Part shown: in pieces, positions 1 through 10,415 of the stretch
Layout: the number at the start of each line of letters is the position of its first letter
Numbering within the stretch: the first letter of the stretch is position 1
Origin: Clostridiales bacterium
GTDB lineage: Bacteria; Bacillota; Dehalobacteriia; UBA4068
Reading direction: 5' to 3'
Assembly (NCBI GenBank): GCA_009783415.1
Contig: WRHF01000081.1
Coordinates: 1 to 13,180, forward strand
DNA length: 13,180 bases
The notes under the pieces: model-generated
The model's database searches: none
Told to the model about the DNA's origin: nothing
Seen by the model: only the letters and a program-made list of their open reading frames with translations
Made by a program: the position numbers and the translations under genes

Positions 1-877
1 CGATTGTAGCCTGGATATTGGTGGGGTAGGCTGCCTGATTATTAGGATGCATTGTTTTCCATGAAAATCCGTGATCATACTCTGTTTGCCGTTCAAAAGA
101 GGCAAATTGGAGCATGCAGCGCTCCAGGGCATTGCGTTCTTTCGATATTTCCAGAATAACCGGCTCGGCGCCCATTGTTTCCCGAAAAAGGGCGGTCAAG
201 TCATTACTTAGACTAAAATGATTTTCCGATTTCGCAACCAAAGTCATCCGGGCCAAGTTTAAGGTGATTCGCTCCAGCTTGTTTCGGTTTTTGCGAAAGG
301 CGGCGCATTGGAGGCGGAATTTGTTATCCCGCGGGGAATAGCAAAGCTTATAAGGATGATACTGGCGTTTGCTCCGGCTGCCCTTCGGACTGTCATATTC
401 AATGATCAATGGGCTTTGCTCTTTGATTGCTTGTAAAATAGTCTTAAACCGGGATCCATAACCGGCATCCTCATAATCATCCCCGTCCAAATGGCGGTCA
501 TAAATGTGAAAATCATCGCTATTAAACAGAGGCGGGGTATCCGCAAGGGATTCCTCTAATTCGGCATATGATTCTTGATCCAGAAACAACTTGAGCCGCG
601 AATCATTAAGCAAGGATCTTAACCATGACCTTTCCAGGCCGGATAAAGGTCTTTTTATTTCCCCTGATATTTTGGAGTAGTACAAGTCGCCTCTCATTTC
701 TAAAAAACTCCATTCGCCGGAAAACAATGCCGGCAGTAAATGAAAGGTGCTGTCGTAAAAGCCATTGTCTCTGACTAATTCTTCGATCTTGGCTTTGGTC
801 AGGCCATTTTTCGCTTGCTCTAAAATCCGGGCAATCACGGTGAAATAACAACCGTAGACTTCCGAAAACAGTTCCAT
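1..877 (-). CDS. WYL-domain protein, paralog 2. The start is at 877-875 and the gene runs off the window start, so at least 292 aa are present and the C-terminus is missing.
   Basis: I translated the minus-strand frame by hand from ATG 877-875 down to position 1 and found no stop: MELFSEVYGCYFTVIARILEQAKNGLTKAKIEELVRDNGF...QYHPYKLCYSPRDNKFRLQCAAFRKNRNKLERITLNLARM... The segment PYKL..NKFRL..AAFRKNR..ERITL aligns with the WYL core of the upstream paralog (PLKI..GRRYV..YSFRKRR..FRLDYI). The start ATG overlaps the upstream gene's TGA stop as TGATG. An SD-like GGCGGTGA lies 6 nt upstream. The ORF track missed this gene because there is no in-window stop. The track's 93-aa ORF 606..887 is an out-of-frame artifact of it. 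Confidence 0.6.
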   Translation of the reverse strand, partial: MELFSEVYGCYFTVIARILEQAKNGLTKAKIEELVRDNGFYDSTFHLLPALFSGEWSFLEMRGDLYYSKISGEIKRPLSGLERSWLRSLLNDSRLKLFLDQESYAELEESLADTPPLFNSDDFHIYDRHLDGDDYEDAGYGSRFKTILQAIKEQSPLIIEYDSPKGSRSKRQYHPYKLCYSPRDNKFRLQCAAFRKNRNKLERITLNLARMTLVAKSENHFSLSNDLTALFRETMGAEPVILEISKERNALERCMLQFASFERQTEYDHGFSWKTMHPNNQAAYPTNIQATI

Positions 878-2118
878 CAAGAATCACCGCCTTCTCTTGC
901 GGCAGCTATGCCATACATATGTGCCATGCGGTTAATATCGCTGAAAAATCGTTTAACTACCGCTTCGTTTGTGCCTTCCAAACCAATAATACGGCCGGTA
1001 AAGGTTTTGATCCACGGTACTATATCAGTAGAATCGAACATCTCTTTGGTATATAAAAATGTATTGTCATCAAGTCGCTTCAGCTCGCCGCCCTGGCCCT
1101 CGCGCTTGATCCGGTCAATGATATATTGTTCATGCCGCTCATCAATACAAAGCTTCATGCTGATAGTTTCCAAGCGGTGGATACCGCCAAAAGAAACGCC
1201 CCAGACCTTGTCCAGATTGTTGTTAAGTCTTTCTTTCAATTCAGCTGCAAAATCGACCTCTTTATCGACCTTGACCGACTTGATGTAATCCAGGCGAAAG
1301 GTATTAAAGCGCCGCTTACGAAATGAATACATGCAAACATACCGCCGCCCGGTCCCGGCGCTGACAAATATTTTTAGGGGAAGGGCATGAACGATAATGC
1401 TATTGCTGCTGCGGATGCTTTGATTGGCAAAAAATACCGAACGGTTTTGCCGGATGGCCGAGAGCAAATCAAAAAGAATCCCGTCCTCTAATGTATGGGC
1501 GATGTAGTAATGCTTGAAGGCGAACAAATCGTTATCTTGATTTTCACTATCCAGAATATAGCTGCCGATTTCCCCAAAGGGCGCTGCGCCTTGAAAAAAC
1601 TTGACCGCGTCAATCAGTTTCGGCGTCAAGGGGATATTCTGCGGATTTATACTGTAAACAAAGGCCCTGCCCTGCTTTTCTTGCCTGAGCATCCCCAACT
1701 TAACATACTCTTTGCACTTATTCCTGACGGTCTGGGCATCAAAGATCATTTCACTTTTATCGCAAATAAAATCGGTGAGCTCGTCCACAGTCATAGGCGC
1801 GGCTTGGAGGGCGTCCAGAATACAAAAGTGCAGCACTATATCGTTTGCAGTGAAGCTTTTGGATTTCCAGGCGGCATAAAGAGGATTGAGCGGGATATGG
1901 GCGCAGTCAACGGAAATAAAAGATGATTTGTTGCCGCTTTTGTAATCCCATTTCATATATTCACCCAGATAACTTTCACAGCGGCGCTTTTCATTATCAT
2001 AAGTACGGGACGACTTTTTGGTGAAATCGGCGCGCGATTTAAAACCATATACATAAAAATCACGCATATAGTCCCGGATTTTATCGAAATTTTTTATTAG
2101 TTCAGAAAAATCGGACAT
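877..2118 (-). CDS. WYL-domain protein, paralog 1 (about 413 aa), a putative ligand- or RNA-sensing transcriptional regulator transcribed divergently from rtcB.
   Basis: The track ORF is 877..2208 but starts on TTG. The first ATG (2118-2116, MSDFSELIKNF...) has a weak SD-like AGGCAAGG upstream. The C-terminal half contains a WYL-like core, PLKIFVSAGTGRRYVCMYSFRKRRFNTFRLDYIKSVKV, which matches the WYL pattern (..GRWYL..ay....R.FRldRI). The C-terminal tail resembles a WCX extension (VPWIKTFTGRIIGLEG). Confidence 0.7.
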   Translation of the reverse strand: MSDFSELIKNFDKIRDYMRDFYVYGFKSRADFTKKSSRTYDNEKRRCESYLGEYMKWDYKSGNKSSFISVDCAHIPLNPLYAAWKSKSFTANDIVLHFCILDALQAAPMTVDELTDFICDKSEMIFDAQTVRNKCKEYVKLGMLRQEKQGRAFVYSINPQNIPLTPKLIDAVKFFQGAAPFGEIGSYILDSENQDNDLFAFKHYYIAHTLEDGILFDLLSAIRQNRSVFFANQSIRSSNSIIVHALPLKIFVSAGTGRRYVCMYSFRKRRFNTFRLDYIKSVKVDKEVDFAAELKERLNNNLDKVWGVSFGGIHRLETISMKLCIDERHEQYIIDRIKREGQGGELKRLDDNTFLYTKEMFDSTDIVPWIKTFTGRIIGLEGTNEAVVKRFFSDINRMAHMYGIAAAREGGDS

Positions 2119-2278
2119 AACCTTGCCTAAATCAAATTCATAGGTACTTGTACAATGTGAAATATAACACAAATTCGACAAATTTGCAAGAAAATCTATG
2201 ATTCGCAAACTTTTTTAAATGATAATGAAAGCCATTCTTGGTAAACTAATCAGAGAAAAGCACAAGGGGTTGATAATT
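2119..2278. promoter_or_regulatory. Divergent intergenic control region between the WYL-protein gene and rtcB.
   Basis: This is a 160-bp AT-rich spacer between divergent start codons. It contains the palindromes GTACTTGTAC (2144-2153) and CAAATTTG (2179-2186), and an imperfect inverted repeat CTTGTACA..TTTGCAAG. The rtcB SD AAGGGG lies at 2264-2269. Confidence 0.35.
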
Positions 2279-3511
2279 ATGTTTGTATTGCACAACGAAA
2301 ATAACAAGGCGCCGATTAAAATGTGGCTGCCGGATCAAACTTATGCCGATGAGCTGTGCCTGGAACAGGCGCTGAATCTTGCCAACCTCCCATTTATATA
2401 TAAATGGGTCTGTTTAATGCCGGATACACATGCAGGGATGGGAATGCCGATCGGCGGAGTTATAGCGACTACAGATGTGATAATCCCCAATGCGGTGGGT
2501 GTTGACATCGGTTGCGGTATGGCTTTTGTAGGAACCGATATCAGGCTTGAGGAAATCCGCGGGATCATGACCGGCAACGGGTCAATTATTCAGGGAATGA
2601 TCGGCGATATTCTGCGCAATATCCCGGTGGGCTTTAATCATCATAAAAAAATCCAAAGCTGTACCACCTTGGACGATGCCCTGGAATCAATGAATAAGTA
2701 TGAAGCCAATCCCGAGCTTTGCGAGCAAATCGAAGCGGGCTATTATCAGGTAGGAACGCTTGGCGGAGGAAACCATTTTATTGAACTGCAAGAGGATGAT
2801 GAGGGTTATCTGGGCATCATGGTCCATTCCGGCAGCCGCAACTTCGGCAAACAGGTCTGTGATTATTTTCACAATACCGCCCGTGAACTCAACCGCAAAT
2901 GGTATTCCGAAGTACCCCAGGAATGGAGACTGGCTTTCTTGCCGGTGGACAGCAAAGAGGGAAAGCAATATATCAATTGGATGAATCTGGCCCTGGACTT
3001 CGCCGCTGAAAACCGGACCAAAATGATGCTAGCCGTATCTGCGATCGTTGAAAAGTGGATCAATAAACATACAGATATCAGATTCAGCTACACCGCTGAA
3101 ATCAATTGCCATCATAATTATGCCGCTCTTGAAAATCATTATCGCAAAAATGTCTGGGTGCACCGCAAAGGCGCTACCCGGGCAAGAGCAGGAGAGCTTG
3201 CAGTAATCCCCGGCGCCATGGGTTCATACAGCTATGTAGTGGAAGGTCTGGGCAACGAAATAAGCTTTTGCTCATCTTCCCACGGAGCCGGTCGCAGCTA
3301 CTCCCGTAAGGGTGCAATGGAAAAATTTACCACACAGGAAGTCATGCTTGACCTGCAAAAGCAAGGTGTAGTTCTTGGTAAGCATAACAAAGACGATGTA
3401 GCCGAGGAAAGCCGCTTCGCCTATAAAAATATAGACGAGGTCATGGAAAATCAAAAAGACCTCGTAAAACCAATTAAGAGGCTCAAAACCCTGGGGGTAG
3501 TTAAGGGGTAG
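2279..3511 (+). CDS. rtcB: RNA 3'-phosphate / 5'-OH ligase RtcB.
   Basis: The protein shows NKAPIKMW...PFIYKWVCLMPDTHAGMGMPIGGV, GGGNHFIEL, CHHNYAA and SHGAGR, which are the canonical RtcB metal-site and active-site motifs. It aligns with E. coli RtcB from TENAPVKMW onward. I chose ATG 2279 (MFVLHNENNKAPIKMW) because it has the SD AAGGGG 9 nt upstream and gives 410 aa, against 408 aa for E. coli. The track's 2219 start adds 20 unsupported residues. Confidence 0.92.
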   Translation: MFVLHNENNKAPIKMWLPDQTYADELCLEQALNLANLPFIYKWVCLMPDTHAGMGMPIGGVIATTDVIIPNAVGVDIGCGMAFVGTDIRLEEIRGIMTGNGSIIQGMIGDILRNIPVGFNHHKKIQSCTTLDDALESMNKYEANPELCEQIEAGYYQVGTLGGGNHFIELQEDDEGYLGIMVHSGSRNFGKQVCDYFHNTARELNRKWYSEVPQEWRLAFLPVDSKEGKQYINWMNLALDFAAENRTKMMLAVSAIVEKWINKHTDIRFSYTAEINCHHNYAALENHYRKNVWVHRKGATRARAGELAVIPGAMGSYSYVVEGLGNEISFCSSSHGAGRSYSRKGAMEKFTTQEVMLDLQKQGVVLGKHNKDDVAEESRFAYKNIDEVMENQKDLVKPIKRLKTLGVVKG

Positions 3512-3665
3512 TGCCTTATAGGTAATCGGTTATTAAGGCGTTACAGCCTTATATAAATGCTTGTTTTGTCCTATGCTAGGGGTTTGTCCAAAACGCCCTT
3601 GCGGCGCCGGGGATTTTATCTATCCGGTGTATCGGGCAAAATGGCGAGGCTCCGTAAACGGGGCA

Positions 3666-3740
3666 CCAATGACAGCACGGGGGTTCGATTCCCCCACCCT
3701 AAAAAAAGGGTTAGCTCAATCGGCAGAGCATGTCTCTTGG
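3666..3740 (+). ncRNA. Circularly permuted tRNA-like fold (tRNA-mimic core) directly downstream of rtcB.
   Basis: The elements occur in this order. T-arm: GGGGG-TTCGATT-CCCCC (3679-3695). Acceptor-like 5-bp hairpin: ACCCT-AAAAAA-AGGGT (3696-3711), capped by an A6 loop. Then TA (U8/A9-like), followed by a D-arm GCTC-AATCGGCA-GAGC (3714-3729) with the GG dinucleotide in the D-loop. Flanking strands 3671-3674 GACA with 3731-3734 TGTC, and 3666-3669 CCAA with 3737-3740 TTGG, pair to form a helix in the anticodon-stem position. A 4-nt variable-region analog GCAC lies before the T-stem. This is the arrangement expected when tRNA ends are moved to the anticodon stem. Confidence 0.5.
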
Positions 3741-3805
3741 ATTAAGCTGATAACTTAATCACCAACGGTCAGCGAGTTATCGCCGAGGTTCGAATCCTCA
3801 CTACA

Positions 3806-3830
3806 AAAAGACCTCTCAAGTCTTTTGGAA
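3806..3830 (+). terminator. Weak intrinsic terminator-like hairpin ending the structured RNA.
   Basis: A 7-bp stem AAAAGAC/GTCTTTT with a 7-nt loop. The 3' strand supplies 4 U, followed by GG. The stem is AT-rich, so termination is probably inefficient. Confidence 0.35.
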
Positions 3831-3989
3831 AAATGACGGAAACTGAAAATGTCCCGCAAAGGAACACATCAACTTTGCAACATCCGGCTTGCCAGTGACG
3901 AAAGGGATACCGCCTGTTTGGGTTCTGCCCCATAGTATTTCCTGCGGGAAGTTCACGCCGGACAGGATTTCAGGCAGCTTAACATTTGT

Positions 3990-4014
3990 CCCGCAAGACG
4001 AATGCGGGCATTTT
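3990..4014 (+). terminator. Intrinsic terminator or attenuator hairpin 40 nt upstream of the SPFH gene.
   Basis: Stem CCCGCA-AGACGAA-TGCGGG (6 bp, 5 GC), then CATTTTC. The 5' strand TGTCCCGCAAG duplicates TGTCCCGCAAAG at 3849-3860. Both copies can pair with CCTGCGGGAAG (3940-3950), giving mutually exclusive structures. Confidence 0.5.
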
Positions 4015-4054
4015 CAGGGGAAGTCAAGTAAAAACAAAGAAAGAAGGCATCAAA

Positions 4055-5149
4055 ATGAAAATCATCATCAAAGAAAATGTACGGGGTTTCCTGTTTAAAA
4101 ACGGAGTGTACCGCAAAATGCTCTTCCCCGGCAAGCATAACATTAAAAAGTTCCTGGGTGAAACCTTTGCCCTGGTAGATGTTTCTAAACCTGTTGAGCC
4201 GGCCAATGTTGACATCGCTGTTTTGCTTCGCGACCAAGAGTTTGCAGACAGTGTCACCCGCATTGATGTACCGAACGGTCATATCGCTATCCACATGGAG
4301 GATAAGCGTATCGTCGGTACTCTGAAGCCCGGTACATATTGCTATTGGAACTGCTATCGTGAGCACACCTTTAAGCTGGTCGACATTGCCAAGGCAGAAA
4401 TCAGCGATCTTTCGCCCGAACAGCTGATGACTATACCCCGCAATCTCTATTTCAAAGTGGAAGTACCGCAAGGCGAAGCAGGCCTCTTGTTTTTTGATGG
4501 GAAGTTTGAACGCCCACTGGAAAGCGGAAGTTATTACTTCTGGAATAATATGCAGAAAATTACTTGCCAGAGCGTAGATTTGCGCTCCCAGCTGTTGGAT
4601 ATTGCCGGCCAGGAGATCTTAACAGCCGACAAAGTTTCATTGCGCATCAACTTTGTCTGTTCCTATAAAATCACCGACGCCGTTAAGATCGTCAGTGAGA
4701 TCAAGGACTACAAAGCCCAGATCTACACCCTGACCCAGCTGGCTCTCCGCGAATATATCGGCAAATTCCGTTTTGATGAGCTTTTGGAGCAAAAAGACTC
4801 CATTGCCGCCTTTGTCTTGAAGCAGCTTCAAGCCAAGCAGGACGCCTTGTTTGTCGAATTTTCCGAGGCGGGTTTAAAGGACATCATCCTGCCCGGCGAA
4901 ATCCGCGATATCATGAATACCGTACTGGTCGCCGAGAAAAATGCCCAGGCCAACGTAATTGCCCGCCGCGAAGAGGTAGCATCAACCAGAAGCTTGCTTA
5001 ATACTGCTAAGCTGATGGAAGAAAATACCACTTTGTACAAGCTGAAAGAGCTTGAATATCTGGAAAAAATCTGCGACAAAGTGGGCAATATCTCAGTTGG
5101 CGGCGGAAATTTGTTGAGCGAGCTTAGAGAAATAATGAGCACTAGGTAA
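4055..5149 (+). CDS. SPFH/band-7 (stomatin/prohibitin-like) domain protein without an N-terminal transmembrane segment, 364 aa.
   Basis: I chose the start MKIIIKENV at 4055, with SD AAGAAGG 7 nt upstream. The track's 3986 start lacks an SD. The protein shows the SPFH pattern: E..G.LF.NG.....L.PGKH at the N-terminus, QEILTADKVSLRINFVCSYKITD, then a long helical region ILPGEIRDIMNTVLVAEKNAQANVIARREEVAS...LYKLKELEYLEKI typical of band-7 C-termini. The N-terminal beta segment appears twice (VRGFLFKNGVYRKMLFPGKH and EAGLLFFDGKFERPLESGSYYFWN). Confidence 0.85.
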   Translation: MKIIIKENVRGFLFKNGVYRKMLFPGKHNIKKFLGETFALVDVSKPVEPANVDIAVLLRDQEFADSVTRIDVPNGHIAIHMEDKRIVGTLKPGTYCYWNCYREHTFKLVDIAKAEISDLSPEQLMTIPRNLYFKVEVPQGEAGLLFFDGKFERPLESGSYYFWNNMQKITCQSVDLRSQLLDIAGQEILTADKVSLRINFVCSYKITDAVKIVSEIKDYKAQIYTLTQLALREYIGKFRFDELLEQKDSIAAFVLKQLQAKQDALFVEFSEAGLKDIILPGEIRDIMNTVLVAEKNAQANVIARREEVASTRSLLNTAKLMEENTTLYKLKELEYLEKICDKVGNISVGGGNLLSELREIMSTR

Positions 5150-5218: not shown

Positions 5219-5310
5219 GCGCATTATTGGACGTAACCGTTTGAGGTTTTGCCCTTTTCTGTATTTATTATACTACGAATTTAATAAAGCTGTCAATGCT
5301 TTTTTTGATT

Positions 5311-7359
5311 CTAGCTCATGAGCTCGCAGATGGAATTGGCGAACGATACCGGGTCTTCGATGGTCAGGCCTTCTATCAGTAAAGCCTGATGATAGAGTAA
5401 CGTGGTATATGTCTTCAATTTCTCCGGATCACTGCCTTCGAGCTTGGTCAAAGCTGCAAATACGGGGTGATTGCCGTTAATCTCCAGGACCCGGTCGGCT
5501 TTTACCTGGTTATCGGTGGGCATGGAATTTAGGACTTTTTCCATTTCTATCGACAAAGGACCGTCGCTGGTCAGGCAGATGGGGTGGCTTTTTAAGCGTT
5601 TGGAAAGCCTTACTTCTTTTACTTTATCGCCCAAGGCCTCTTTCATGGCAGTAAAGAGGTCTTTATGGGTTTCGGCTTGCTCTTTAGTTGCTTCTTTTTC
5701 TTCTTTACTTTCCAAATCCAAGTCCTTATCAGAGACGCTCTTGATGGTTTTTCCCTGATATTCATTAATGATCTTAATGGCAAACTCATCCACATCCTCG
5801 GTCAGGGCTAAAATATCATAGCCTTTATCCAGCACAAGCTCGGTCTGGGGCAATTGGCGGATCCGGCTGATGCTGCTGCCGCAGGCATAATAGATAGTTT
5901 CCTGGCCCTCGGTCATTTTTTCCAAGTACTCCGCCAGGGTCACCATTTTATCTTCCTTCAGAGAATGATAGAGCAATAAATCCTGCAGCTTGTCCTTATC
6001 GGCGCCAAAACTGTTATAAATCCCGAATTTGAGCTGCATGCCAAAGTTTTTAAAGAAACCTTCGTACTTCTCGCGATCATTTTTGAGCAGCTTGAGCAGA
6101 TCCGACTTGATCCGCTTATCCAGACTCTTGGCTATGGCCTTTACCTGGCGGTCCTGCTGCAGCATTTCCCTTGAGATATTCAGGGAAAGATCCGGGGAAT
6201 CCACCAAACCTCTGACAAAGCTGAAACAATCCGGCAGCAGGTCGGCGCATTTTTCCATGATCAAAACCCCGTTGGCATAAAGTTGCAGGCCCTTTTCATA
6301 TTCTTTGCTGTAATAGTTGTAAGGGGTATTCAGAGGTATATAAAGGATCCCGTCATAGCTGATGGTTCCCTCCGCGCTGATATGGCTGTAGGTCAAAGGA
6401 ATCTCGTAATTGGAAAATTTTTCCATATAAAACTGTTCATAATCTTCTCCGTTGACCTCATTTTTATTACGCCGCCAGAGGGGAACCATACTGTTTAGGG
6501 TATCGATTTCCTGGTAATCTTCATATTCCGGCGCTTTTTTGTCGTCGCTATCCTCTGTCGCTTTGGGCCGCCTTTTGGTTAGGGCCATCTTGATGGGGTA
6601 GCGGATATAATCGGAATACTTTTTGACTATGTCCTGAATTTTGTACTGATCCAGATACTGACTGTAATTTTCCTCATCGTGGTTGTCTTTGAGCGCCAGG
6701 ATGATGGTTGTACCAAAGCCCTCTTTTTCATAAGGCTCGATACTATAGCCGTCAGCGCCCTCGGATTGCCAGCGCCAGGCTTCATTACTGCCATAGGCTT
6801 TACTGATCACGGTGATTTCTTTGCTGACCATAAAGGCGGAGTAAAAGCCCACCCCAAACTGACCGATAATATCAATATCAAAACCCGCCTCTTTGGCTTC
6901 ATCCTCTTCAGCTGGTTGAGCAGCTGTTGTTTCCTCTGCAGCATCTAAAGGTGTATCCTGGGACTCGGAAGCACTGTCATCTTCCTCTTCGTTTTCTTCT
7001 TCACCCATTCTTTCCGGCTTGAATTTTTCTAAATTATCCTTGTTTTCCTGTCTGAAATCCATAGTTCCGCTTTTGGCAATAGTACCCAGATTATTTTCCA
7101 GTTCCTCTTTGGTCATACCAAGGCCATTATCCCGAATAGTCAAGGTGCGGTTATCCTTGTCGGCCTCAATAAAAATCTCGAAGTCGCTCCGGTCAAAAGA
7201 CAGCCCGTCTTCGGTCAGGGTTTTGAAATAGAGCTTGTCCATGGCATCGCTGGCATTGGAGATCAGTTCCCGCAAAAAGATTTCTTTGTGGGTATAAATT
7301 GAATTGATCATCAGGCCCAATAAGCGTTTCGATTCCGCCTTAAATGGTTTTTTCTTCAT
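5311..7359 (-). CDS. htpG: Molecular chaperone HtpG (Hsp90), 682 aa.
   Basis: The protein shows [27 protein letters not shown], which matches the E. coli HtpG N-terminal ATPase signature, along with GTIAKSGT, a charged linker, and a [12 protein letters not shown]-terminal region. I chose the start at M14 ([17 protein letters not shown] 7359-7357), preceded by GGGGG 7 nt upstream. The track's M1 at 7398 has no SD and would lie inside the CIRCE operator. Confidence 0.9.
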
Positions 7360-7384
7360 AAGCAAACCCCCAGAAATAATATTA

Positions 7385-7411
7385 TTAGCACTCTCCATAG
7401 TCGAGTGCTAA
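7385..7411 (-). promoter_or_regulatory. CIRCE operator (HrcA binding site) in the htpG leader.
   Basis: TTAGCACTC-tccatagtc-GAGTGCTAA is a perfect match to the CIRCE consensus TTAGCACTC-N9-GAGTGCTAA. It extends to a 13-15 bp inverted repeat (ATTATTAGCACTC / GAGTGCTAATAAT), located between the promoter and the htpG SD. Confidence 0.85.
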
Positions 7412-9692: not shown

Positions 9693-10415
9693 TTATACTA
9701 CTAACAAAGCCCGTAAGGCCAGGATATAGCTTTGGATGCCCAAACCATAAATAGACCCCCGGCATACTGCTGCCAGTACTGAGTGGTGGCGGAATTCTTC
9801 CCTGGTGTGGATATTGGAAAGATGTACCTCTATCACGGGGGTGGTTACGGCGGCGATGGCATCGCGGATGGCCAGGCTGTAATGGGTATAGGCCCCGGCA
9901 TTTAAAATAATTCCGGCATAAGCGCTGCTATCTTGGATCCAGCTAACTATTTTACCTTCACAATTGCTTTGATGGCAGGTTACGGTTGCCCCCAGTTCTG
10001 TTCCCAGCTCCGAAAGGGTTTGATTGATTTGATCTAAAGTGGCGGAGCCATAATGCTCCGGTTCCCGGTCTCCCAATAAATTCAGATTTGGGCCATGAAT
10101 AACTAGAATTTGCTTCATTGGATTATCACTCCCCTCAAGATTTTGCAGCAACTTGGCCTGATACGAGCGGGAAATTCCCATCAGCCCCTGCATAAAGCTG
10201 GTAGCTTCCCCGGTCAATTCCGGCCCAGCCAAAGCGGCAGCTTGCTCAATAACCTCCCGCTCCCGAACAGGGTCGGTCAAGGCCAAGCCGCTATCTCTCT
10301 TAAGCTGTGCCACACCCCGGACAAACTCCATCCGCCGGGTAAAAAGCTCCAAAAGCCGGCTGTCGATTTCATCTATTTGAGAGCGCATGGAGGATATTTG
10401 ACCTTGGTAATTCAT
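9693..10415 (-). CDS. aroQ: Bifunctional fusion of an AroQ-class chorismate mutase (residues 1-99) and a type II 3-dehydroquinate dehydratase (residues 100-240).
   Basis: The N-terminus SQIDEIDSRLLELFTRRMEFVRGVAQLKRDSGLALTDPVREREVIE is an AroQ chorismate mutase helix bundle. The C-terminus shows ILVIHGPNLNLLGDREPEHYG, HQSNCEGKIV, NAGAYTHYSLAIRDA and IEVHLSNIHTREEFRHHS, which are type II DHQase signatures. SD AAGGAG lies 7 nt upstream of ATG 10415. An internal strong SD GAGGGGAG lies 8 nt upstream of M100 (10118-10116). An out-of-frame TGATAA is present at the junction. Confidence 0.85.
   Translation of the reverse strand: MNYQGQISSMRSQIDEIDSRLLELFTRRMEFVRGVAQLKRDSGLALTDPVREREVIEQAAALAGPELTGEATSFMQGLMGISRSYQAKLLQNLEGSDNPMKQILVIHGPNLNLLGDREPEHYGSATLDQINQTLSELGTELGATVTCHQSNCEGKIVSWIQDSSAYAGIILNAGAYTHYSLAIRDAIAAVTTPVIEVHLSNIHTREEFRHHSVLAAVCRGSIYGLGIQSYILALRALLVV

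Follow-up and report, generated by a model that had tools for sequence, protein, structure and literature searches.

A large structured RNA with a circularly permuted tRNA-like core between rtcB and an SPFH gene in Clostridia

The window, that is the whole 13,180-nt stretch of DNA analysed here (Clostridiales bacterium, contig WRHF01000081.1 of assembly GCA_009783415.1), carries on its forward strand an rtcB gene for an RNA ligase, an intergenic region and a gene for an SPFH/Band-7 protein. Two genes for WYL-domain regulators lie upstream on the reverse strand (Table 1). The region between rtcB and the SPFH gene is filled by a structured RNA, ~3561 (perhaps 3534) to ~4025, the core of which is a circularly permuted tRNA-like module. 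For rtcB the open reading frame (ORF) call begins at 2219, and a ribosome-binding site (AAGGGG-N9-ATG) supports the ATG at 2279. WYL regulator 1 was called at 877-2208; its true start is probably near 2118, and its relatives were called at 406-418 aa.

Relatives were collected using the window RtcB as query, yielding 80 loci from species-representative genomes. All 80 are from Clostridia, mainly Lachnospiraceae, with RtcB identities of 65-82%, and many are from gut or termite-gut assemblies. Nine further metagenomic relatives (SPFH identity 73-85%) were added. Carriers among isolates are Anaerocolumna xylanovorans DSM 12503, Clostridium sp. KNHs205, Petralouisia muris, Roseburia sp. 1XD42-69 and Lachnoclostridium sp. 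An131/An138. Regions downstream of rtcB were aligned and compared for covariation, as a preliminary description of this DNA had proposed.

The pattern of a T-arm followed by a D-arm was by itself enough to locate the module downstream of rtcB in ~30 of the 80 loci. Twenty-nine module sequences were aligned and folded with RNAalifold, giving 17 module pairs, 12 of them compensatory (T-stem, acceptor-like stem and closing stem), and a covariance model (R1) was built from this alignment. R1 scored the window module at 59.3 bits (E ~1e-15). It detected the module in 57 of the 80 RtcB loci at 43-81 bits, always on the rtcB strand and mostly 100-350 nt past the rtcB stop. No match was obtained with R1 on 723 kb of unrelated viral DNA. 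With R1, tandem tRNA genes also reach 30-55 bits, and a score by itself therefore does not separate them from modules. ARAGORN found no tRNAs in the rtcB-proximal intergenic regions of the 80 loci, save one 'tRNA-Glu' in L029, which is a D-arm read through to the next T-arm.

Residues U8, A14, G53, T54, T55, C56, A58, Y60 and C61 are invariant in the alignment of the 57 modules. The Levitt pair of tRNA, 15:48, covaries in the same alignment (G:C in 47, A:U in 5, other in 4); the window's own residues are A15 and C48. The T-arms, acceptor-like hairpin, UA, D-arm, flanking strands and hairpins listed in the preliminary description were all found in place, and the permuted tRNA topology that it had read from them is borne out by the compensatory pairs, the invariant tertiary positions and the covarying 15:48 pair.

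The same description had placed the RNA at 3560-3830. A structured RNA is indeed present there, and the range proved too narrow: 5' and 3' domains, which had been overlooked together with the SPFH partner gene, bring the RNA to ~470 nt. For the full RNA, the 12 complete intergenic regions closest to the window were aligned. RNAalifold yielded 116 pairs on this alignment, 59 of them compensatory, and the addition of three conserved hairpins gave an extended structure of 133 pairs in 21 helices. Paired cells made up 94.2%, against 36-47% when partners were slid by 1-3 columns. Changes on both sides were seen in 66 pairs; the slid controls gave 15-23 and shuffles 30 ± 3.4, none of the 500 shuffles reaching 66. 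The counting was done on the alignment from which the structure was derived. The minimum free energy z-score for 3530-4050 was -4.0.

Conservation is high in the junction of the 5' domain (GCGG(U/C)GCC...GGU(A/G)U). Helix P1 differs in sequence between subgroups with its complementarity kept, and in 24 loci covariation is seen in the basal pairing of P3 (UA in 21, CG in 3). The 3' domain is closed by a long-range 13-bp helix and holds conserved unpaired islands, namely GGAUACCG (3905-3912), CCCAUAG, GCCGGA and CUUAAC; in an independent mixed alignment, 15 of its 18 pairs were compensatory. Other subgroups follow the same plan with different helix sequences, and a Lachnospiraceae subgroup has an equivalent 3' domain. 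The motif GGATACC was found in 45 of the 80 loci and never where the element is wholly missing; two of its carriers, L015 and L048, have a weak or partial module match. The last helix ends ~30 nt before the SPFH start codon (4055). The hairpin just past the rtcB stop may act in processing or at the 5' end, or as a weak attenuator.

Several candidate pairings were not retained. A long-range pairing of 5' GGUAU with 3' AUACC was neither supported nor excluded, and the local, compensated P3 explains GGUAU. A pseudoknot of AUGG with CCAU (linker before T-arm 2 with the CCCAUAG loop) was dropped because its variants do not compensate. In the Lachnospiraceae subgroup, the RNAalifold pairing of 5' UAUUUC with 3' GAGGGAUA was rejected for the local P1 plus a closing helix, ACUUUUAUCCC/GGGAUAAAAGU. 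A GCCU/AGGC helix within the 3' domain was dropped at 60% paired. Viral contigs were scanned with a DNA pattern for the 5' domain and gave chance matches only, with no module in 80 loci of at least 120 matching stretches. Two overlapping forward-strand ORFs (62 and 65 aa) at 3557-3758 span the 5' domain and the module, and a 96-aa ORF was annotated by the gene caller in the equivalent region of L081. These ORFs are argued to be non-coding because of the covariation at paired sites and the indels among relatives.

Table 1. Coordinates of the genes and RNA elements in the window. Compensatory and paired percentages refer to the alignments of relatives.
Feature	Position	Strand	Details
WYL-domain regulator 2	2..880	-	Clipped by window edge; Pfam WYL E=8.9e-6; in 68/80 loci
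WYL-domain regulator 1	877..2208	-	Divergent from rtcB; Pfam WYL E=4.8e-6; in 70/80 loci
rtcB RNA ligase, 410 aa	2279..3511	+	Pfam RtcB E=9.7e-113; relatives also 410 aa
Hairpin UAAGGC/GCCUUA, then UAUAUAA	3534..3551	+	Just past rtcB stop; 93% of cells paired, one-sided variation; sequence kept in 12-region alignment
5' domain, three-way junction	3561..3644	+	P1 3561-3571/3634-3644; P2 3574-3583/3595-3603; P3 3604-3609/3625-3630 + 3612-3614/3618-3620
Small hairpin GCUCCG-UAAA-CGGGGC	3649..3664	+	Optional, missing in some relatives; 98% paired, 2 compensatory pairs
Circularly permuted tRNA-like module	3666..3740	+	Closing stem, T-arm, acceptor-like hairpin, D-arm
Closing stem (anticodon-stem equivalent)	3671-3674/3731-3734 + 3666-3669/3737-3740	+	GACA/UGUC plus CCAA/UUGG
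T-arm 1	3679-3695	+	GGGGG-TTCGATT-CCCCC
Acceptor-like hairpin	3696-3711	+	4-5 bp, ACCC(U)/(A)GGGU, A-rich loop
U8-A9 (UA)	3712-3713	+	
D-arm	3714-3729	+	GCTC-AATCGGCA-GAGC
Variable hairpin GAUUAAG-CUGAUAA-CUUAAUC	3740..3760	+	Helix 91% paired, 2 compensatory pairs
Short hairpin	3772-3775/3780-3783	+	Immediately before T-arm 2
T-arm 2	3785-3788/3796-3799	+	GAGG-TTCGAAT-CCTC, loop UUCGAAU
Anticodon-stem-loop-like hairpin AAAAGAC-CUCUCAA-GUCUUUU	3806..3826	+	Core stem 3809-3812/3820-3823; 7-nt loop fits YU-NNN-RA
3' domain, long irregular multi-helix, ~190 nt	3835..4025	+	38/56 pairs compensatory
3' domain helices	3835-3837/4023-4025, 3842-3854/4006-4018, 3856-3864/3870-3878, 3880-3885/4000-4005	+	
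3' domain helices, continued	3891-3904/3983-3994, 3920-3930/3960-3971, 3938-3941/3948-3951	+	
SPFH/Band-7 ('slipin'), 364 aa	4055..5149	+	Pfam Band_7 E=2.8e-32; in 52/80 loci

Across loci the dominant architecture is T-arm, D-arm, T-arm. Some loci carry two or three modules in tandem, and the extra T-arm is then always last. The helices of the short hairpin and of T-arm 2 are 100% paired, with 3 compensatory pairs. The hairpin at 3740-3760, described earlier as an anticodon arm like that of tRNA-Ile (GAU), is real; its loop is not conserved, however, it is missing in L081 and L089, and no counterpart is evident in other subgroups. The conserved anticodon-loop-like element is instead the hairpin at 3806-3826, which has the family form (A)GAC-YUNNNRA-GUC(U) and stands before or after T-arm 2 according to subgroup. 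Of the 55 distinct loci, 33 carry it; its density is 2.1 per kb, where the background has 0.54 per kb. Among 45 such hairpins, 22 have GUN as the loop triplet (38 of 545, or 7%, in the background), and the loop reads CUGUNAA in about half of the family; that of the window itself, CUCUCAA, is not GUN. The sequence U33-G34-U35 marks the queuosine-family tRNAs (Tyr, His, Asn, Asp) and is recognised by tRNA-guanine transglycosylase and by anticodon nucleases of the colicin E5 type. Any relevance of this to the family hairpin is speculation.

The gene neighbourhoods of the 80 loci were compared by clustering of ORFs. Only four families recur, namely RtcB, the two divergent WYL regulators and the downstream SPFH protein; the next commonest neighbours are unrelated housekeeping genes. 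The conserved cassette therefore reads WYL, WYL, then divergently rtcB, RNA, SPFH. The window order of rtcB, RNA (3561-4025) and SPFH is kept in 50 loci, and the layout of rtcB, gap and SPFH is repeated in the nine metagenomic relatives, whose surroundings are otherwise unrelated. The tRNA-like module was detected in 50 of the 52 loci with an SPFH gene. Of the 28 loci without SPFH, 21 are also without the module, and in four of the seven exceptions the contig stops short of the place where SPFH would lie. L018, L020 and L072 have the module and no adjacent SPFH gene.

Pfam found WYL in both regulators, in agreement with the preliminary description, which had noted such regulators near rtcB. 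WCX was found in one of the pair at 20.4 bits (Pfam cutoff 23.9), and no helix-turn-helix domain was shown by Pfam. In regulator pairs of the PafBC type, two neighbouring paralogues each have helix-turn-helix, WYL and WCX domains. A full-length relative of WYL regulator 2 (L001:2665-3636) carries WYL and WCX. Divergent promoter-like sites were found at 2161-2202. The two divergent regulators, which may be of the PafBC type, most likely control the operon. No promoter-like site was found on the forward strand between rtcB and the SPFH gene in a scan for promoters and terminators. The lone terminator-pattern match on that strand (3597-3612) lies inside the conserved 5' domain and was not taken as a terminator, and neither an anti-terminator nor a sequestered ribosome-binding site was found in the rtcB-SPFH region. 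As no promoter or convincing terminator separates the two genes, co-transcription with both is the simplest reading, and the RNA is most likely made as part of one transcript with rtcB and SPFH.

The sequence profile of the SPFH protein matches stomatin, QmcA and HflK chains. A model was generated using AlphaFold2 (mean predicted local distance difference test score, pLDDT, 84; predicted TM-score, pTM, 0.58). Its N-terminal part has three beta repeats; besides these there are an SPFH domain and, at the C-terminus, a long helix. No hydrophobic helix is present at the N-terminus. Foldseek searches with the model returned the ring- and cage-forming stomatin, HflK/C and prohibitin over ~230-250 aligned columns, and the major vault protein over 400-433 columns, nearly the full query. 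The predicted likeness to the major vault protein is suggestive only.

The neighbours of the cassette vary from locus to locus and include DndE, an SMC/AAA protein and AbiTii (L081:4021-6095, L082:4290-5819), which suggests a mobile stress or defence island. In two of the loci without SPFH, the gene after rtcB encodes 715 aa that match nothing in Pfam (L018:7376-9643, L020:7353-9647). A solitary T-arm/acceptor-like/D-arm module lies ~2.3 kb downstream in both, without a 5' domain, and the 715-aa protein may be an alternative partner for the same kind of RNA. Genuine genes for tRNA-Glu(UUC) and/or tRNA-Cys(GCA) stand just past the cassette in unrelated loci (L073:6729-6883, L078:6960-7244, L069:5844-5915); in L078, which has neither the RNA nor SPFH, they directly follow rtcB. 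Two loci have the 5' end of a 16S rRNA gene a short way past SPFH (L046:6729-6792, L058:9385-9448), and a second rtcB-like gene lies ~600 nt past SPFH in another (L048:9454-10548). In the window, htpG (Hsp90; 5311-7398, reverse strand) converges on the SPFH gene and has a perfect sigma-70-type consensus promoter (TTGACA-18-TATAAT) at 5267-5296. Further on, an ORF at 9693-10415 fuses type II chorismate mutase and type II dehydroquinase domains and adjoins a DAHP (3-deoxy-D-arabino-heptulosonate 7-phosphate) synthase gene; these belong to an aromatic amino-acid gene cluster unrelated to the RNA.

The RNA was compared with known families using Rfam (Rfam 15) and ARAGORN. Nothing was found at the gathering score in the window or in the intergenic regions of 18 relatives, and ARAGORN found no tRNA and no tmRNA in the window. 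The tRNA model scored 19.9 bits against a threshold of 29, on a reading that spans the D-arm through T-arm 2. The 5' acceptor-like strand pairs beside the upstream T-arm and not past T-arm 2; a canonical cloverleaf, in which the two ends make a 7-bp acceptor stem and the anticodon arm stands between the D- and T-arms, is not formed. This is not a standard tRNA gene, as had been stated before. The tmRNA models matched only the 17-18 nt of a T-arm (13-15 bits). The large RNA families ROOL, GOLLD, OLE, raiA and HEARO gave no Rfam match on the intergenic region, even below threshold in E-value mode. The RNA shares with them a length of several hundred nucleotides, many covarying helices, unpaired islands and an occurrence in Firmicutes and in gut or rumen Clostridia; it differs in being fixed in a protein-coding operon and in containing recognisable tRNA modules.

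In E-value mode on 3450-4060, the YrlA family (RF02553) gave the best structured match, at 27.2 bits (E=0.0011), with a gathering score of 69. The match covers model positions 30-81 of 114, exactly the T-arm, the acceptor-like stem and the D-arm. The RNA of L060 matched at 37.4 bits (model positions 19-90). Model positions 1-18 and 91-114, which form the terminal stem, were never aligned in either. Both scores lie below the gathering score; this threshold is a weak test, because the Rsr-adjacent candidate of L263 also falls below it. YrlA RNAs have been defined by a tRNA-like domain, a 5' Ro-binding motif (GNCGAAN0-1G) and proximity to rsr, in a search confined to TROVE-carrying genomes, and the tertiary signature of tRNA, including 15:48, was an argument for their tRNA mimicry (Chen et al., 2014). 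The sole match to the motif in the RNA studied here is GACGAAAG at 3897-3904, which is taken as a chance match because relatives do not share it and it falls within a helix of the 3' domain that covaries. Using the TROVE + vWA_Ro60 protein of L263 as a tblastn query, no Rsr gene was found in the window or in the 89 related loci within a reach of ~6 kb (best E=2), which extends to the relatives the earlier observation that the window has none.

The resemblance to YrlA that had been proposed therefore stands for the tRNA-like domain. The order of the permuted parts, the invariant tRNA positions, the covarying 15:48 pair and the linkage to an rtcB operon are the same, and R1 scores the Rsr-linked RNA of L263 at 64 bits. 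The RNA of the window differs in having neither a Ro60-binding stem or motif nor a nearby rsr, its partner gene being SPFH. It differs in size as well: Y RNAs have 80-130 nt, whereas this module is set inside ~470 nt with an extra T-arm and an anticodon-loop-like hairpin. The RNA is thus clearly related to YrlA's tRNA-like domain and lacks the other defining features of that family.

RNAs of a second kind have been predicted beside rtcB. In some bacteria RtcB is encoded beside a Band-7 protein and a predicted 'b7a-tRNA' that is strongly tRNA-like, and YrlA occasionally adjoins a Band-7 protein (Burroughs and Aravind, 2016, as related by Wang et al., 2018). According to Wang et al. (2018), both associations are predictions without experimental validation, and a cofactor hypothesis, Band-7 acting with b7a-tRNA and Rsr with YrlA, had already been proposed. 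RtcB/Band-7-linked tRNA-like RNAs were therefore already known as a computational prediction, and the earlier statement that no Rsr-independent tRNA mimic linked to rtcB had been described has to be withdrawn, at the level of the system, on the strength of that account. No later description of such RNAs was found in literature searches, in which the 2016 original was represented by Wang et al. (2018). The locus shares with that system an RtcB gene beside a Band-7/SPFH gene and a non-coding RNA with tRNA-like parts. The b7a-tRNA is described there as strongly tRNA-like, whereas the RNA of the window is permuted, has large extra domains and scores below threshold as a tRNA. It belongs to the Band-7/RtcB class as a permuted and greatly enlarged member. 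What may be new is an architecture of ~470 nt that includes an additional T-arm and the CUGUNAA hairpin, and likewise the control by a WYL pair; these match no Rfam family and no description found in the literature searched, as far as its texts were available.

A metagenome pattern scan returned mostly tandem tRNA genes and three informative loci (L222, L263 and L283). L222 encodes an SPFH protein 34% identical to that of the window, with two abutting tRNA-model matches directly upstream (5408-5553; 50 and 43 bits) and a GC-rich spacer of ~330 nt before SPFH. ARAGORN called them tRNA-Tyr(GUA), 73 nt and without a long variable arm, and tRNA-Ile(AAU). A long variable arm is expected in bacterial tRNA-Tyr, and the anticodon AAU is not normally used for tRNA-Ile in bacteria. 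These two RNAs fit the description of the b7a-tRNA proper. L283 has an SPFH protein 42% identical and a chain of tRNA-like units directly upstream. L263 is a classical locus of rtcB, a YrlA-like RNA and rsr, with a genuine TROVE + vWA_Ro60 protein.

The reading tentatively preferred here, with a probability of about 0.45, is that the RNA serves as a cofactor or scaffold of an RNA-repair particle formed by RtcB and the SPFH protein. Induction of the operon would go by way of the WYL pair. Like its structural relatives, the soluble SPFH protein would assemble into a ring or cage; its contacts with the RNA would be made in the 5' and 3' domains, which would act as a protein-binding platform. The tRNA-shaped parts would recruit or mimic tRNA-recognising factors and broken tRNAs for resealing by RtcB. 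Parallels are provided by Ro60 with YrlA in the rsr-yrlBA-rtcBA operon of Salmonella and by the Band-7 and tRNA-like RNA systems predicted by Burroughs and Aravind. The RtcR/CARF-controlled rtcBA operons (Hughes et al., 2020) are likewise stress-inducible RNA-ligase operons with a divergent ligand-sensing regulator; here the regulators are a WYL (WYL + WCX) pair in place of a sigma-54 activator with CARF, and the window has no rtcA gene.

A bolder form of this reading would make the family an uncatalogued, ornate RNA class (~470-700 nt) that joins RtcB and a soluble SPFH protein like the major vault protein in a vault-like RNA-repair particle of Clostridia from the gut, that of termites included. 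Surfaces that dock or mimic damaged tRNAs, or that engage toxins directed at tRNAs, would be supplied by the permuted modules, the spare T-arm and the CUGUNAA mimic, and the cage would hold the RNA by its conserved 5' and 3' domains. The likeness to the vault would lie in the pairing of a cage-forming SPFH-type protein with a small structured RNA, and it lies in the predicted fold (beta repeats, SPFH 'shoulder', long helix), which aligns with the major vault protein. The differences are that the window protein has 364 aa against the ~800 aa of the vault chains matched, that no TROVE protein is present (TEP1 in the vault) and that the likeness comes from a predicted model. This form is speculative and, in our judgement, unlikely, if well worth keeping in mind.

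The structure of the RNA, its conservation, its gene linkage and the lack of an Rsr gene are what the sequences show; its transcription, its binding to SPFH or RtcB and any role in repair are what we infer. Several points weigh against a particle. A leader acting in cis on the SPFH mRNA would account just as well for the near-perfect co-occurrence with SPFH. The likeness to the vault rests on a single predicted model (pTM 0.58) with low TM-scores (~0.43). The percentage of paired cells is inflated by deriving and counting the structure on the same alignment, and the compensatory counts are inflated less.

The strongest of the other readings, itself rather improbable, is that the RNA acts as a competitive inhibitor or decoy: toxins that target tRNAs, such as anticodon nucleases, would be absorbed by the module and the anticodon-loop-like hairpin, which would be induced together with the ligase that repairs the damage. 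The conserved 7-nt loop, CUGUNAA in about half of the family, and the enrichment of GUN triplets are consistent with this; tRNAs that bear U33-G34-U35 are acted on by tRNA-guanine transglycosylase and by nucleases of the colicin E5 type. Competitive inhibition has also been raised as a possible role of YrlA, although a RecA-dependent nuclease did not cleave Salmonella YrlA (Hughes et al., 2020). The CUCUCAA loop of the window, not GUN, speaks against a decoy, and ~280 nt of conserved 5' and 3' domains and the strict linkage to SPFH would be left unexplained.

Two further readings are improbable to a similar, greater degree. In one, the RNA is a damage sensor: cleaved or nicked, it would yield a ligand that activates the WYL pair, in the way that tRNA halves act on the CARF domain of RtcR. 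WYL domains are nucleic-acid-binding sensor domains and stand here in the place of RtcR, and damaged tRNAs activate RtcR in Salmonella (Hughes et al., 2020). However, the RNA lies past rtcB within the operon that it would regulate and has no detected promoter of its own, so that it would be scarce before induction, and ordinary cellular tRNAs would do equally well as a signal. In the other, the RNA is a cis-acting leader or processing element that controls the stability, processing or translation of the SPFH mRNA, for instance as 'punctuation' for RNase P or RNase Z. Its position immediately upstream of SPFH, with the last helix close to the start codon, and its loss along with SPFH would suit such an element, and RNase P can cut Mycobacterium smegmatis YrlA in vitro (Chen et al., 2014). 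Yet neither a terminator or anti-terminator nor a sequestered ribosome-binding site was found, L018, L020 and L072 have the module with no SPFH gene next to it, and ~470 nt, 21 helices and covariation of a tertiary pair far exceed the needs of known leaders.

That the RNA is an ordinary YrlA Y RNA serving a Ro60/Rsr protein encoded elsewhere in the genome is very improbable. The match of its tRNA-like domain to the YrlA model and the recognition of an Rsr-adjacent RNA by R1 are what such an RNA would give. YrlA RNAs, however, normally lie within 4 kb of rsr on the same strand (Chen et al., 2014), whereas no Rsr was found within ~6 kb in the window and 89 related loci, a search of loci and not of whole genomes; nor is there a terminal Ro-binding stem, and the sole motif match is unconserved and sits in a covarying helix. 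Decayed tRNA genes or functionless integration-site remnants, named in the preliminary description as what might underlie the motifs and suggested by tRNA-like pieces in a mobile-looking cassette with differing neighbours, can be set aside because the covariation data contradict them: compensatory changes are extensive, the tertiary positions do not vary, and order and strand stay the same in 57 loci at RtcB identities of 65-82%.

The family described here bears on what bacterial RtcB repairs and on the roles of tRNA-like cofactor RNAs such as YrlA, and it belongs to the Band-7-linked branch, so far a matter of prediction. It offers a well-defined RNA with 133 supported pairs in a compact five-part cassette that is present in isolates. 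If the RNA were only an mRNA leader, it would be an unusually elaborate one. If it assembles with the SPFH protein, the complex would be a bacterial counterpart of the vault or of Ro-Y RNA particles, built on a large structured RNA amenable to cryo-EM.

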